A stretch of 64,000 nt of DNA, from contig JBEQAR010000002.1 of NCBI GenBank assembly GCA_041640295.1, positions 38,101 through 102,100 on the forward strand, given 5' to 3'. The notes beneath the pieces are model-generated. The model had not been told where the DNA came from and did no database searches. It saw only the letters and a program-made list of their open reading frames with translations. Origin of the DNA: a bacterium. GTDB lineage: Bacteria; Patescibacteriota; Minisyncoccia; UBA6257; HR35. This document shows, one piece after another, positions 3,210-63,597 of the stretch; the first letter of the stretch is position 1; every line of letters starts with the position of its first letter. A program made the position numbers and the translations under genes.

Positions 3210-3324
3210 GCTTTGCGGTACCTACTCTCGCGCCTTATCGGCACTACCATCGGCGCTAAGCCGTTTCACCTGCTTGTTCGGAATGGGTAAGGGTGTTTCC
3301 AGCTTAGCTATGCAACCACAAAGC
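3210..3324 (-). rRNA. rrf: 5S ribosomal RNA. It is an orphan, with no 23S gene adjacent.
   Basis: A GC-rich island sits in AT-rich DNA. Its reverse complement reads GCUUUGUGGUUGCAUAGCUAAGCUGGAAACACCCUUACCCAUUCCGAACAAGCAGGUGAAACGGCUUAGCGCCGAUGGUAGUGCCGAUAAGGCGCGAGAGUAGGUACCGCAAAGC. This contains the conserved 5S blocks CCGAAC, GUGAAAC, AGCGCCGAUGGUAGUG and GCGAGAGUAGG. The 5' and 3' ends pair over 10 bp to form helix I. Confidence 0.85.
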
Positions 3325-35739: not shown

Positions 35740-37256
<1,517 letters not shown>

Positions 37257-37393
37257 AAACCTAACCAGGATAATTAAAAACCTTTTTAATATAAATTTTA
37301 GTGTACAATAAAATCATCAAATCAAAAACAATCTTAATAATTTACTCAACCAACATTTATAATTCAATTCCACAATTTAGAAAGATAAGTATT

Positions 37394-56823: not shown

Positions 56824-57687
56824 ATGATCGAAGAACTTCATGACGAAAAAGTAAAGTTTTTAGAAGAGAAGGCGAATGAAATAAGGCAGTTAATAATTGA
56901 GATGCTTTTAGAAGCTGGCTCAGGCCACTCTGCTGGACCACTTGGTATGGCTGATATTTTTTCTGCTTTTTATTTTCATATTTTGCGTCACGATCCTAAA
57001 AACCCCGACTGGGAAGATAGAGATAGATTAGTTTTATCAAATGGTCATATTTGCCCGGTTCGTTATGCAGCAATGGCACTTACTGGTTATTTTCCTGTTG
57101 AAGAATTAAAGACACTAAGAAAAATTAATACGCGGCTTCAAGGTCATCCTCACCGGACCGCTCTTCCTGGAGTTGAAACAACATCTGGTCCACTTGGTGA
57201 AGGAATCTCTCAAGCTATTGGTATGGCTATTGCTGGAAAACTTGATAAAAAAGATTACCATGTCTATTGTATAACTTCTGACGGTGAGCATCAAGAAGGA
57301 AATACCTGGGAAGCTTATATGTTCTTGGGCAAAAATCAACTTGATAATTTAACAATAATCATTGATAGAAACTATATTCAAATTGATGGAGTAACTGAAG
57401 ATGTTATGCCACTTGAACCATTAAAGCAGAAATTAGAAAGTTTCGGACTTCATGTTTTAGAAGTTGATGGTCATAATATTCGAGCTTTTGTTGATGCTAT
57501 AAGAGAAGCAAGATCAGAATGGCGAAGAACTTCGGTAATTATTGCTTATACAATTCCGGGCAAAGGAGTTGATTTTATGGAAAAGAAATTTGAATGGCAC
57601 GGTAAACCACCCAACAAAGAAGAAGCCAAAAAAGCCTTAGATGAACTAAGAACCTTAGGAGGCAAAATTCAAAGTGAACATCAATAA
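56824..57687 (+). CDS. Transketolase, N-terminal (TPP-binding) subunit
   Basis: It has GSGHSAGPLGMADI and the TPP motif SDGEHQEGNTWEA. At 287 aa it has the typical size for a split transketolase. Confidence 0.85.
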   Translation: MIEELHDEKVKFLEEKANEIRQLIIEMLLEAGSGHSAGPLGMADIFSAFYFHILRHDPKNPDWEDRDRLVLSNGHICPVRYAAMALTGYFPVEELKTLRKINTRLQGHPHRTALPGVETTSGPLGEGISQAIGMAIAGKLDKKDYHVYCITSDGEHQEGNTWEAYMFLGKNQLDNLTIIIDRNYIQIDGVTEDVMPLEPLKQKLESFGLHVLEVDGHNIRAFVDAIREARSEWRRTSVIIAYTIPGKGVDFMEKKFEWHGKPPNKEEAKKALDELRTLGGKIQSEHQ

Positions 57688-57927: not shown

Positions 57928-58332
57928 ATGTACTGTCTCGATGCTAGTGTAATTGTAAGTAGTCAATTAAAAAAAGAAGTATTCTATTTTCAAAGTAAAA
58001 GATTTTTAGAGCGAGTCAAAAGAGAAAAGATTAAAATTTTTTTACCTGAAATTGTCATTCCTGAAATAATTTCAGGAGTTTTTAGAGGTACGCAAAATAA
58101 GAAATTAACTTTAGAATTTGTATCTCTATTAAGAGAATTACCTAATTTTTTATTTATTCCGGTAGATGCTAAATTATCTAATCTTGCTGGATCTATAATT
58201 ACAGAAACAGGCTTAAAAGCCAATGATGCTATTTATGTAGCTTTAGCCTATGATTATGATTTAGAATTAATTACTCTTGATAAGGACCAATTAGAAAAAG
58301 GTAAAAAATTTGTAAAAACTAGAATGCCTTAA
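57928..58332 (+). CDS. PIN-domain (VapC-like) toxin
   Basis: The protein is 134 aa. The four acidic PIN residues are in register (LDASVIV, LPEIVIPE, NDAIYVALA, LITLDKD). Confidence 0.7.
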   Translation: MYCLDASVIVSSQLKKEVFYFQSKRFLERVKREKIKIFLPEIVIPEIISGVFRGTQNKKLTLEFVSLLRELPNFLFIPVDAKLSNLAGSIITETGLKANDAIYVALAYDYDLELITLDKDQLEKGKKFVKTRMP

Positions 58333-58565: not shown

Positions 58566-58799
58566 ATGAAGAAAAAAATTTACAATTATACAGCCATTTT
58601 TGAAAAAAATGAATTAGGCGGATATACTGTTATTGTTCCTGCATTGCCCGGTTTGGTTACTGAAGGAAATGATTTAATAGAAGCAAAGAAAAATGCTGAA
58701 GAAGCTATTAGATGCTATCTAGAAGGTTTATTAAAAGATAAGAAAAAGATTCCTGAAGAAAAAGAAATTGCTCAGATGAGGCTTGAAATCAAAATTTAA
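58566..58799 (+). CDS. hicB: HicB-family antitoxin
   Basis: The sequence YTAIFEKNELGGYTVIVPALPGLVTEGNDLIEAKKNAEEAIRCYLE matches the HicB N-terminal domain pattern Y.A.FE...GGY.V.VPDLPGC.T.G.T.EEA...A.EAI. Confidence 0.75.
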   Translation: MKKKIYNYTAIFEKNELGGYTVIVPALPGLVTEGNDLIEAKKNAEEAIRCYLEGLLKDKKKIPEEKEIAQMRLEIKI

Positions 58800-59042
58800 A
58801 TGCCTAAATTACCGAGAATTTCTTCACAAAAATTAATAAAAGCTTTATTAAAATTAGGATTTTATATACATCATCAAGTAGGCAGTCATATTCATTTAAA
58901 ACATTTCTCTAAGACTCATTTAAGAGTAGTTATTCCAGCTAAAAGAGAATCATTATCTCCCAAAACTTTAAAATCAATATTAGTTCAGGCAGAGATTACA
59001 ATAGAAGATTTAAAGAAAGTTATTATAATTAATAGAAAATAA
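58800..59042 (+). CDS. hicA: HicA-family mRNA interferase toxin
   Basis: It has the HicA motif (L)LKLGF...QVGSHIHLKH and a C-terminal ...TLKSILVQAEI. It starts immediately after hicB. Confidence 0.75.
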   Translation: MPKLPRISSQKLIKALLKLGFYIHHQVGSHIHLKHFSKTHLRVVIPAKRESLSPKTLKSILVQAEITIEDLKKVIIINRK

Positions 59043-59091: not shown

Positions 59092-60546
59092 ATGCTAAAT
59101 CCAGAACTTAAATTAAATCCAAAAATTTTTGATCAAGATGTTGAGCAAAAGCCGATAAGAGATGGTTATGGTGATGCTTTAGTTGAACTTGGAGAAAAAA
59201 ATCCTAATGTTGTTGTTTTAACGGCTGATTTGGCTGAATCAACAAGAGCTCATAAGTTTGCCGAGAAATGGCCAGAAAGATTTATTGAGTGCGGAGTTGC
59301 TGAACAAAATATGGCGGGAATTGCTGCTGGCCTTGCTGTTTCTGGAAAAATTCCTTTTATTTCTTCTTATGCAACTTTTTCTCCTGGTAAAAACTGGGAA
59401 ACAATAAGAACAACAATAATATATAATGATGCAAATGTAAAAATTGCAGGCCATCATTCTGGAATTGTTACTGGTCCTGATGGGGCTACGCACCAGGCAA
59501 CAGAGGATATTGCTATTACAAGATGTTTGCCAAATATAAAAGTTATTTCTCCGTGTGATTACTTCGAAGCAAAAAAAGCAACTTTATATTCAGCTGAAAC
59601 TTATGGACCATTTTATATAAGATATGTAAGAGATAAAACGCCAGTAATTACTACTGAAGAAACACCGTTTAGATTTGGAAAGATTGAATGTTTTTGGTTA
59701 CCGCGGATTAACACGGATAAGACACGGATTGACGCGGATGATGCACGAATAGATGCGGATAAAAATTTATTATATGAGGATTTGACTTATCAATTGAGAA
59801 ATATATTTTTTACAGTATATAACAAAGTAGGAGGTGGTCATAAGGAAATAATTTATAAAAATAGTGTAGAAAATGAGTTAAAAGGTAGAGGGATCAGTTA
59901 TTCAAGGGAACCGGCAATAGAAATAAAGTATAAAGATCAAGCAGCAGGAGTATATAGACCAGATTTTATTATAGATGGAAAAATAATAATTGAAATTAAA
60001 GCTGATAGAAAATTAATCAAAGAGCACATACGTCAAGCCTTTTCTTATCTAAAAGCATCTCCGTATAAATTACTCTTGCTTGTAAATTTTGGATATACAA
60101 AGCTAGAAATAAAAAGGTTTATAGATATGAAAAAATCTAATCCGCGTGAATCCGTGTTCATAGATCCGCGTAGATCCGCGGTAGCTATTTTTTCGACGGG
60201 GCATTTGGTTTATCAAGCGCTGCTTGCAGCTAAAGAATTAGAAGAAGAGGGAATCGATATTTGCGTTTTAAATGTTCATACAATAAAGCCCTTAGATGAA
60301 GAAAAAATTTTAGACGTTGCCAGTAAAGTTAAAGGGATTGTTACCTTGGAGGATCATCAGGTACACGGTGGATTAGGAAGTGCCATTGCTGAAGTCATTG
60401 TTCAAAAAAGTGAGTCTAAACCAAAAATGCTCTTTCTTGGTCTTCAAGATACTTTTGGTGAATCAGGAAAACCTGATGAATTAATCAAAAAATACGGAAT
60501 GGATAAGGAAGCTGTTAAAAATGCTGTTAAAAAATTATTATCTTAA
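59092..60546 (+). CDS. Transketolase C-terminal (Pyr plus C-terminal domain) subunit carrying an in-frame insertion of about 160 aa
   Basis: The N-terminal part (GVAEQNMAGIAAGLAVSGKIPF, HHSGIVTGPDGATHQ) and the C-terminal part (AVAIFSTGHLV...NVHTIKPLDEE) are colinear with transketolase C subunits. The segment between FRFGKIE and AVAIFSTG is foreign. It carries GGGHKEIIY (GxxExxY) and DFIIDGKIIIEIKA (D...ExK). Confidence 0.8.
   Translation: MLNPELKLNPKIFDQDVEQKPIRDGYGDALVELGEKNPNVVVLTADLAESTRAHKFAEKWPERFIECGVAEQNMAGIAAGLAVSGKIPFISSYATFSPGKNWETIRTTIIYNDANVKIAGHHSGIVTGPDGATHQATEDIAITRCLPNIKVISPCDYFEAKKATLYSAETYGPFYIRYVRDKTPVITTEETPFRFGKIECFWLPRINTDKTRIDADDARIDADKNLLYEDLTYQLRNIFFTVYNKVGGGHKEIIYKNSVENELKGRGISYSREPAIEIKYKDQAAGVYRPDFIIDGKIIIEIKADRKLIKEHIRQAFSYLKASPYKLLLLVNFGYTKLEIKRFIDMKKSNPRESVFIDPRRSAVAIFSTGHLVYQALLAAKELEEEGIDICVLNVHTIKPLDEEKILDVASKVKGIVTLEDHQVHGGLGSAIAEVIVQKSESKPKMLFLGLQDTFGESGKPDELIKKYGMDKEAVKNAVKKLLS
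59701..60181 (+). mobile_element. In-frame insertion element inside the transketolase C-terminal gene, bounded by GC-rich imperfect terminal inverted repeats
   Basis: The left arm is ccgcggattaacacggataagacacggattgacgcggat.... The right arm is ...atccgcgtgaatccgtgttcatagatccgcgtagatccgcgg. The reverse complement of the right arm shares ccgcggat and acacggatt(g/c)acgcggat with the left arm. GC content is locally high in an AT-rich gene. The element encodes the GxxExxY/PD-(D/E)XK-like module. Confidence 0.45.
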
Positions 60547-60589: not shown

Positions 60590-60770
60590 GATTATTAAAC
60601 TATACAATAATTTTAGAACCAGCCGAAGAAAGTGGTTATGTTGTTATTTACCAGCTTTGCCAGGCTGTGTTACACAAGGAGGTACATTTTAAGAAGCTTT
60701 AGAAATTGCTAAAGATGCTATTTGGGGATATTTAGAATTTTTAAAACTATTAAAAGAATAATTATATTAT
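60590..60770 (+). pseudogene. HicB antitoxin pseudogene, disrupted by a frameshift and a nonsense codon
   Basis: Two frames together read NYTIILEPAEESGYVVIY / PALPGCVTQGGTF*EALEIAKDAIWGYLEFLK. This is colinear with the HicB at 58566 and with the HicB consensus. It has no start codon and no hicA partner. Confidence 0.55.
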
Positions 60771-62982: not shown

Positions 62983-63053
62983 TGCCGGGTCGTCTAATGG
63001 TAGGACACGAGGCTCTGGACCTCGGAATCTAGGTTCGAATCCTAGCCCGGCAG
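62983..63053 (+). tRNA. tRNA-Gln (anticodon CUG)
   Basis: It has a U1:A72 acceptor pair (UGCCGGG/CCCGGCA), which is characteristic of bacterial tRNA-Gln. The anticodon loop is CUCUGGA and the T-loop is UUCGAAU. Confidence 0.8.
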
Positions 63054-63064
63054 AAAAACAATAT

Positions 63065-63135
63065 TGCGGGGTGGTGTAACGGTAGCACAGCGGCCTTTGG
63101 AGCCGTTAGTCTTGGTTCGAATCCAAGCCCCGCAG
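63065..63135 (+). tRNA. tRNA-Gln (anticodon UUG)
   Basis: It has U1:A72 (UGCGGGG/CCCCGCA). The anticodon loop is CUUUGGA and the T-loop is UUCGAAU. It sits in tandem with the preceding tRNA-Gln. Confidence 0.8.
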
Positions 63136-63144
63136 CAATTAATT

Positions 63145-63597
63145 ATGAGAAAAAACAATAAAGTAGCAATTTATTGTGCTTTTAAAGAAAAAGGAGAAAT
63201 TTTTTATATCCTCGTCCAAAGAAGTAAAAAGCGAGGTGGGTTTTGGCAAGGAATTACAGGTGGAGAAGAGGACTTTGATAATAATGATTTAAATAAAACA
63301 GTTATTAGGGAAATAAAAGAAGAACTAGGTATAAATATTTCAAAAAAACAAATTTTCCCAATACCCTATTCTTTTAAATTTATAAACAGAAAAGGCGTTA
63401 AAGAAACAGAATATTGTTTTGGAGTAATTTTATCTTTAAAGCAGAAGAAAAATATTAGCCTTTCAGATGAACACACTGCTATTATTTATTCAAAAGATCC
63501 AAAATACTTAATATCTCTTTTGAAATTTAAAGAAAATAAAATTGGATTCAAAAAATTCACTAAATTGTTGAAAGAGAGGCTTGAATATTTAAATTAA
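63145..63597 (+). CDS. NUDIX hydrolase
   Basis: The Nudix box is GGEEDFDNNDLNKTVIREIKEELGI (Gx5Ex7REUxEExGU). The start is taken at the ATG at 63145, downstream of the tRNA. The upstream part of the track ORF overlaps tRNA-Gln. Confidence 0.75.
   Translation: MRKNNKVAIYCAFKEKGEIFYILVQRSKKRGGFWQGITGGEEDFDNNDLNKTVIREIKEELGINISKKQIFPIPYSFKFINRKGVKETEYCFGVILSLKQKKNISLSDEHTAIIYSKDPKYLISLLKFKENKIGFKKFTKLLKERLEYLN

Follow-up and report, generated by a model that had tools for sequence, protein, structure and literature searches.

A candidate selfish nuclease cassette bounded by periodic inverted repeats lies in frame within a transketolase gene of a Patescibacteriota bacterium

Rickettsia palindromic elements (RPEs) are palindromic insertions located in frame in many unrelated and often essential open reading frames (ORFs), where they are read through and tolerated at the protein surface (PMC10969869). 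The ShiLan insertion in a phage DNA methylase is neither an intein nor an intron, remains free of stop codons in the host frame, is predicted to loop out, and exhibits homing-like evolution (PMC11855218). Intervening sequences of the Leptospira type in 23S rRNA place a short ORF within long, stem-forming inverted repeats in an essential and conserved gene (PMC11270868). Here we describe an insertion in the gene for the C-terminal subunit of transketolase, an essential enzyme of sugar metabolism, from a very small, uncultured bacterium of the phylum Patescibacteriota (GenBank assembly GCA_041640295.1, contig JBEQAR010000002.1). All positions given below are those of the analysed stretch of 64,000 nucleotides, which we call the window. 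In our judgement this insert is likely to be a selfish nuclease cassette that is translated without being spliced out and that has a life cycle similar to homing. The cassette would consist of a GxxExxY nuclease gene of the PD-(D/E)XK type set between two inverted arrays of ~10-11-nt units, hereafter termed arms.

Among published elements, the non-splicing homing insertion of ShiLan comes closest by analogy. The HNH endonuclease of ShiLan is read in a frame other than that of its host, whereas the nuclease of the present insert is read in the host frame. ShiLan also makes use of another nuclease family, has no periodic inverted-repeat arms, and is a phage element rather than one of cellular housekeeping genes. 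RPEs resemble the insert as in-frame palindromic insertions, and the gene-less hairpins of related transketolase, LepA and RecG genes appear to behave like them. However, RPEs are restricted to Rickettsia and consist of ~150 bp without an enzyme gene, whereas the present element includes a nuclease domain under selection and periodic arm arrays of 10-11-nt units, and is distributed over many phyla. An ORF enclosed by stem-forming inverted repeats inside an essential gene also recalls the 23S intervening sequences, but those are located in rRNA, are excised by RNase III without ligation, and encode a four-helix-bundle protein. Given that none of 20 free-standing GxxExxY loci lies within an rRNA gene, we retain these intervening sequences as an analogy only. 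Repetitive extragenic palindromes (REPs) and bacterial interspersed mosaic elements, with their associated RAYT proteins, similarly present a small enzyme gene between inverted short palindromic repeats together with many gene-less copies per genome. However, RAYTs are HUH/Y1 transposases rather than PD-(D/E)XK enzymes, and REPs are extragenic and not translated in frame.

Inteins and homing endonucleases provide the remaining points of comparison. As with these elements, an in-frame nuclease ORF occupies one site near highly conserved motifs of essential genes, and there are empty-site alleles, a patchy distribution, incongruent phylogenies and decay to remnants. A preliminary description of the locus, made from the sequence alone, had noted the lack of an intein splice signature, and indeed Pfam reports no Hint or intein domain, while the junctions (FW/LPRIN and RRSA/VAIF) are without junction nucleophiles or a terminal HN. 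Membership among the inteins was rejected on these grounds, and the insert apparently stays in the protein. Unlike the usual homing endonucleases, the nuclease belongs to the PD-(D/E)XK GxxExxY type rather than to LAGLIDADG or HNH, and the cassette has inverted-repeat bounds. Membership among group I or group II introns likewise failed, because in every relative the insert preserves the host frame without a stop codon and because Rfam returned no intron or known RNA, either in a whole-window scan at the gathering threshold or in a permissive scan of the locus (E<=1).

The characterization of the insert as similar to a miniature inverted-repeat transposable element (MITE) could be kept only in part. 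Terminal inverted repeats are present (TACCGCGGAT...ATCCGCGGTA), but no target-site duplication was found, and the insert is not a small, non-coding, non-autonomous and multi-copy element, given that it carries a conserved gene and occurs as a single copy in 64 kb. Thus, MITE-like is a loose analogy, although gene-less multi-copy relatives of the element occur in other genomes. The nuclease family itself, PF13366, was listed as ‘function unknown’ in a 2012 survey of its superfamily (PMC3424549). We found no description in the literature of the GxxExxY family (PF13366, TIGR04256) in this role, of its repeat arms or of in-frame palindromic insertions in the Candidate Phyla Radiation (CPR), although our coverage is incomplete and an earlier account may exist elsewhere.

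The host ORF (positions 59092-60546, plus strand) encodes 484 aa, for which an exact-match look-up of the protein returned no record. A Pfam scan divides it into Transket_pyr (aa 22-183), PDDEXK_3 (aa 230-343) and Transketolase_C (aa 359-475), such that the host part with the Pyr domain (59092-59697) and the host part with the C-terminal domain (60181-60546), both on the plus strand, are separated by the insert. The closest homolog without the insert (P0054; 94.5% identity across the host columns) reads FRFGKIECFW-KPQKENAE-IAIMATG at the site where the window protein reads ...ECFW-LPRIN...(161 aa)...RRSA-VAIFSTG. This empty-site allele, together with the corresponding DNA locus L126, confirms the in-frame insertion first proposed from the sequence and fixes its position, with a loop of eight residues replaced by the insert. 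The original estimate of ~160 aa was close, but it had included the residues CFW, which belong to the host. Therefore, the insert runs from LPRIN to RRSA and comprises 161 codons (59698-60180, plus strand), as delimited by alignment to insert-less and insert-bearing homologs. The site falls in a turn flanked by the predicted strands E198-202 and E364-368, and the predicted peptides across the two junctions are ...IECFWLPRINTDK and ...DPRRSAVAIFSTGH.

The nuclease core occupies positions 59767-60135 (plus strand), as delimited by family models and fold prediction, and has neither an in-frame ATG nor a stop codon of its own. It matches PF13366 (PDDEXK_3) with E=4e-29 and 101.7 bits (cutoff 22). 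It also matches the NCBIfam model TIGR04256 GxxExxY from end to end (1-116 of 116; E=1.8e-30, 102.9-105.7 bits, cutoff 35), and the family that the preliminary description had named was thus the right one. Both motifs read from the sequence are present, namely the GxxExxY motif GHKEIIY (59836-59856, plus strand) and the PD-(D/E)XK stretch (59962-60000, plus strand), in which D is encoded at 59962-59964, E at 59992-59994 and K at 59998-60000. The glutamate of the first motif (E50) is an invariant column in alignment A2, and alignments A2 and A3, which hold 24 and 7 sequences, show no variation at the catalytic columns D89, E99 and K101. Structure prediction gives the core a restriction-endonuclease-like PD-(D/E)XK fold with pLDDT (predicted model confidence) above 90 when modelled alone, and lower values in the full-length model. 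As judged from sequence and predicted structure, the insert core is a conserved PD-(D/E)XK nuclease-fold domain with intact catalytic residues, as had been supposed. Searches by sequence of the PDB yielded no match to the insert and no GxxExxY member with a solved structure. A PADLOC scan for defence systems gave no hit, comparison with PHROGs revealed only weak endonuclease-like matches, and tblastn for GxxExxY homologs detected no second copy of the gene in the window.

The left arm (59699-59766, plus strand) is a tandem array of five to six YRCGGAT units with alternating 10/11-nt spacing and a 21-nt super-period (59704-59745), and is translated as PRINTDKTRIDADDARIDADKN. The right arm (60136-60183, plus strand) contains four ATCCGYR units in inverted orientation and is translated as SNPRESVFIDPRRSA. 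Residues encoded by both arms are predicted to be disordered (pLDDT below 50). The terminal sequences TACCGCGGAT and ATCCGCGGTA extend to 59699 and 60183, respectively, and the inverted repeats (59699-59739 and 60140-60183) stand out from shuffled sequences with z=11.6. The GC content of the arms is 0.50-0.52 compared with a window mean of 0.276, which agrees with the GC-rich inverted repeats initially reported to bracket the insert. Three occurrences of a two-unit pattern were observed in 64 kb where 0.16 were expected, every one of them at this locus, and the repeats are therefore not a codon-level coincidence. RNA folding closes the arms into a long stem (z=-4.2), and thus a long hairpin could form in the mRNA, as was also anticipated.

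The PF13366 domain is found at the same site in ~28 transketolase C subunits of 484-571 aa from metagenome-assembled genomes (MAGs) of Parcubacteria, Minisyncoccia and Paceibacterota, and scans of genomes and metagenomes revealed 13 DNA loci with identical insert boundaries. Other tallies give twelve DNA loci in addition to the ~28 proteins, and 14 transketolase loci that agree in their boundaries. In all of these relatives the insert is in frame and free of stop codons. The same architecture is present in independent NCBI, JGI, ENA and Logan assemblies, and three of the loci (L082-L084) are identical sequences from three separate samples. The JGI database names insert-bearing transketolases ‘GxxExxY protein’. 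The insert is patchy within one CPR transketolase group and a sister sequence lacks it, which eliminates the possibility that it is a normal subdomain of the enzyme.

Other homologs carry at the same site either gene-less hairpin inserts of 36-55 aa or short remnants of 13-22 aa. One of them (L127) represents an internal deletion of the cassette, of which the left arm with the first core-proximal codons and the final right-arm unit survive. The existence of deletion remnants indicates that the insert is dispensable. Many homologs have hairpins without the gene at a second hot spot, in the C-terminal domain of transketolase. Members of a single hairpin family (YFGPNTDISDKNNK...SEQSVLSPKKS) occupy both sites in one protein (P0069), and at another locus (L001) four arm pairs lie within 1.1 kb, in and downstream of the gene. 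Arm copies elsewhere, which the preliminary description would have taken as support for mobility, therefore exist in relatives as gene-less hairpins (two sites in the gene, and intergenic DNA), but the window contains none.

Pairs of relatives that are not saturated give ratios of nonsynonymous to synonymous substitution rates (dN/dS) of 0.05-0.16 for the insert core, equal to those of the host parts. Such host-like values, together with the invariant catalytic columns, indicate that the domain is maintained as a protein. We assessed the congruence of element and host by sliding-window identities, a four-point test on dN, a host tree and an insert tree. At the nucleotide level the hosts of loci L082 and L085 are 90-100% identical, and this value falls to 67-74% precisely over the length of the element. 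L082 and L092 match more closely in their elements (80-90% identity) than in their hosts (73-79%). These mosaic breakpoints coincide with the element ends. The window insert is 58-67% identical to other transketolase inserts, compared with 82-91% for its host. In a host-only tree the window gene nests among empty-site alleles and the inserts are patchy, while all transketolase inserts form one clade among GxxExxY sequences in the insert tree.

Thus, the element phylogeny is incongruent with that of its host, and, as is typical of homing genes, the same site is occupied in diverged hosts for which there are empty-site alleles. This holds for transketolase, and LepA, LeuRS and RecG have one recurrent site each. 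Judging from the sequences, such a pattern would be expected either from loss and regain of a site-specific element, as in a homing cycle, or from exchange of cassettes via conserved arms. The earlier proposal of a selfish or homing-type element gains support from this mosaicism and from the presence of the same cassette in many unrelated host genes.

At least 15 other host families carry the cassette in frame. Among GTDB genomes, five LepA/EF4 loci have it at one site just before the DTPGH motif, three LeuRS loci at one site, and four RecG loci at one site after the DEQH motif, all in frame. Relatives in GTDB provide further in-frame hosts, including SecA, a membrane glycosyltransferase-like protein with two copies, and the C terminus of RecJ. 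Exhaustive searching with a profile returned 21,432 clusters at 50% identity (E<=1e-3), and ~58 of the top 150 clusters are proteins of at least 300 aa. These fusions with host proteins emerged from the exhaustive search of representatives; the top matches in a listing of Pfam architectures are all free-standing. Pfam identified host domains, often split by the insert, in 28 of 30 long GxxExxY proteins. The hosts include GT2, EF-Tu-type GTPase/LepA, DHFR, RecG, alpha/beta hydrolase, GatB, Wzy_C, RtcB, LeuRS, asparagine synthase (AsnB), GT1/GT4 and P-type ATPase. The arm peptides recur in almost all hosts, as (T/N)xxDA(D/E) repeats N-terminal and (R/Q)xSA repeats C-terminal to the core, and each of the 12 internal insertions among the best genome hits is open and in frame on both sides. 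A palindromic element is therefore read through in frame in several unrelated ORFs, as is characteristic of RPEs.

Some host proteins exhibit additional peculiarities. One LeuRS (P0273, encoded at locus L013) combines a GxxExxY insert with a NUDIX domain insertion identified by Pfam, and another (L008) contains, by eye, an alpha/beta-hydrolase-like segment besides its GxxExxY insert. CPR housekeeping proteins may thus accept other inserted domains too. The membrane glycosyltransferase-like ORF at L010:1909-4497 has been multiply invaded, with two GxxExxY inserts of different subfamilies and repeat-coded segments (YSDNSDSFGYSDY...). In four proteins of ~440-600 aa (P0288, P0303, P0350 and P0310), an N-terminal GxxExxY domain is followed by a right-arm peptide and then by a signal-anchor and a secreted or membrane protein. 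It seems that the cassette either landed at the extreme 5′ end of the gene or has no stop codon to keep gene callers from reading through it. Tandem GxxExxY pairs in one ORF are seen in many clusters of ~260-275 aa and at L045:1072-1851, which suggests either that cassettes were inserted beside or into each other or that a functional dimer is made as one chain.

The arms are a trait of the wider family. Flanking inverted repeats with z>=5 are present at 57 of 80 GxxExxY loci, which represent Omnitrophota, Nitrospirota, Chloroflexota, Planctomycetota, Bacteroidota, Verrucomicrobiota and other phyla. The arm units measure ~10 nt throughout (for example CGCGGAT, CACAGAT, CACGAAT and CGCTGAT). The unit varies by lineage and agrees between both arms of one locus, while the protein is conserved. 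Gene-less arm pairs with loops of 20-130 nt are located nearby, sometimes in tandem arrays, and one MAG holds two copies with common arm units whose cores cannot be aligned at the DNA level. A Verrucomicrobiota MAG (L055:2560-3960) presents a GxxExxY gene in a tandem array of ~190-nt repeats. Each of these repeats contains a hairpin (TTCCGCG x3 / CGCGGAA x3-4), and the immediate flanks of the gene are direct rather than inverted.

Outside the CPR the gene is usually free-standing, its start codon (ATG) lying close to where the left arm ends and its stop codon immediately ahead of the right arm, whereas the in-frame CPR copies have neither a start nor a stop codon of their own. The UniRef name of one free-standing member starts with ‘NADH:ubiquin...’ and was probably propagated from a fusion. 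In the in-frame copies, unit spacing alternates between 10 and 11 nt to give 21 nt, or seven codons, in 48 of 58 cases, and 93% of two-unit spacings are divisible by three, compared with 41% in free-standing copies. As read from these sequences, the 21-nt period is a signature of arms selected for translation. Because the CPR cassette lacks start and stop codons and has a frame-preserving arm period, it can sit in a beta-hairpin turn or variable loop.

We propose that no splicing occurs at the level of RNA or protein, and that transketolase most likely bears a folded nuclease on a surface loop via two disordered, arm-encoded linkers. Because the host frame is kept open at either end of the insert and the arms have a 21-nt period, we infer that the insert is translated. 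The nuclease would also be active. The cassette would hold one defined site in a conserved essential gene and be inherited vertically under purifying selection. It could then decay by internal deletion to hairpin-only forms or short remnants, or be lost, and lateral replacement or regain would occur at exactly the same boundaries. A DNA break made by the nuclease may allow the cassette to be copied into empty sites, or to be moved with its arms. Recognition might involve the periodic units, whose spacing of roughly one helical turn would align them along the same side of the DNA. Alternatively, the nuclease might recognise a cruciform or hairpin formed by the arms. We hold only tentatively that the nuclease itself is the mobility enzyme. 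It is similarly possible, without being our expectation, that GxxExxY proteins are the mobility nucleases of an unrecognised class of bacterial selfish elements with periodic inverted-repeat arrays as their bounds, of which the CPR branch would be a stop-less, frame-adapted ‘non-splicing intein analogue’ that homes into the beta-hairpin turns of essential enzymes and is produced as a domain within the host protein.

Several observations weigh against the proposal of a translated, homing-like cassette. There is no consistent target-site duplication or shared target motif among the transketolase copies and the empty site. A TA flanks the window insert and is missing at other transketolase copies, and the empty site of L126, which has 24 nt at the position of 483 nt in the window and no clean target duplication, indicates that a loop was replaced rather than simply interrupted. 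The window copy may be an immobile relic, given that neither the arms nor the gene recurs within 64 kb. Homologous recombination between conserved arms could yield the mosaic pattern without dedicated nuclease activity. In the transketolase copies compared, unit cores match between the arms while the spacers are only partly complementary, and thus arrays of binding sites fit as well as a hairpin. Strict base-pair covariation of the arms in these copies was abandoned as a line of evidence for the same reason, and we make no claim of selection for a hairpin over binding sites. The spacing counts are not independent, because many loci, including those in transketolase, are related. The in-frame set is biased towards ORFs that are visible to gene callers or an ORF walk, such that frame-breaking insertions are missed. 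Finally, support for the proposal comes from sequence and structure prediction, with cleavage, translation and the mobility mechanism inferred from these.

With these caveats in mind, we considered several other explanations. The hairpin might be the mobile unit and the nuclease its cargo, with palindromes moved by an unlinked enzyme or by replication slippage, and with GxxExxY proteins residing in or targeting the loops, perhaps as an addiction, defence or repair module. Gene-less hairpins do outnumber gene-bearing copies, hairpins of a single family are found at two sites in the same gene, the two copies in one MAG have common arm units and unalignable cores, and the units are lineage-specific while the protein is conserved. 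We nevertheless consider this explanation unlikely. Arms at 57 of 80 loci across phyla reveal an association with the gene that is tight and ancient, at least one gene-less form derives by deletion from a gene-bearing one, and no PADLOC hit or other candidate enzyme was found. A domesticated fusion, in which an old insertion has become fixed and immobile and is kept for a role in the host (nucleic-acid binding, regulation or assembly) with the repeats as leftovers, is to our minds slightly less plausible still. It is difficult to reconcile with the insert-less sister allele, the patchiness on the host tree, mosaic breakpoints at the element ends and deletion remnants that demonstrate dispensability, or with a cassette that recurs in at least 15 unrelated host families without a common function and retains invariant catalytic residues. 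Purifying selection on the core equal to that on the host, the monophyly of the transketolase inserts, the single copy in the window and the degenerate arm spacers are what this fusion would predict.

The remaining explanations we regard as far less probable. If the arm stem served as a processing site, either for RNase III as in 23S intervening sequences or for the encoded nuclease acting with RtcB, mature mRNA and protein would be free of the insert. A stable stem is predicted from the RNA fold noted above and CPR genomes encode RtcB, but removal of the insert from RNA is very improbable for several reasons. Every internal insertion lacks stop codons and keeps the host frame at both junctions, for which the chance would be ~(1/3)^12 if the downstream frame were unconstrained, and the frame-preserving 21-nt arm period is confined to in-frame copies. 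Furthermore, the mRNA would be lost if RNase III cut it and no ligation followed, Rfam yields no matching model of an intron or other RNA, and the 20 free-standing loci examined all lie outside rRNA genes. One specific version, namely cleavage of the mRNA at the arm stem by the nuclease followed by ligation of the exons (with RtcB as one possible ligase), would amount to protein-catalysed bacterial mRNA splicing, and we give it marginally less credence again. That the repeats arose by codon-level chance or that the insert is a chimera of assembly has nothing but the single copy in the window to recommend it. Motif statistics exclude chance, and the recurrence of the architecture in four independent sources of assemblies, with identical sequences from three samples, leaves this explanation with a practically negligible probability.

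The surroundings of the gene provide further observations. The transketolase N subunit is encoded upstream at 56824-57687. A PIN-domain gene (57928-58332) is separated from the transketolase C gene by a toxin-antitoxin pair, which encodes a HicA toxin (58800-59042) and a HicB-like antitoxin (58566-58799). The PIN and transketolase C genes are direct neighbours at L126, which is syntenic but has no insert, and therefore the HicB-like/HicA pair is a second lineage-specific insertion at the locus. A HicB-like pseudogene, disrupted by frameshifts and a stop codon, lies 3′ of the transketolase gene (~60615-60770), and its stitched pieces (EPAEESGYVVI / LPALPGCVTQGGTF / EALEIAKDAIWGYLEFLKLLKE) score 35 bits to HicB_lk_antitox (cutoff 27). 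Elsewhere in the window, an ORF of 177 aa (63064-63597) begins within a tRNA gene (63065-63135) that adjoins a second tRNA gene (62983-63053), and thus its N-terminal part is probably spurious, while the rest is NUDIX-like by eye. The rRNA genes on the minus strand comprise a complete, insertion-free 16S gene (35740-37258) and a 5S gene (3210-3323). They are separated by ~32 kb and no 23S gene was detected across the 64-kb window, indicating that they are unlinked.

For the GxxExxY family, the present findings propose a testable function for a large group of orphan nucleases and for the periodic palindromic repeats that accompany them. Beside introns and inteins, selfish nuclease genes in essential genes would have a third lifestyle, in which they stay in the protein by means of repeat-encoded linkers with a 21-nt period. 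The findings also bear on unexplained long proteins and on misannotation in CPR genomes. The host proteins (transketolase, LepA, LeuRS, RecG, SecA, GatB, RtcB, DHFR and others) offer a natural map of insertion-tolerant sites that may be of use in protein engineering, and the nuclease, should it prove to recognise a particular DNA structure or site, might have practical value as a new enzyme.

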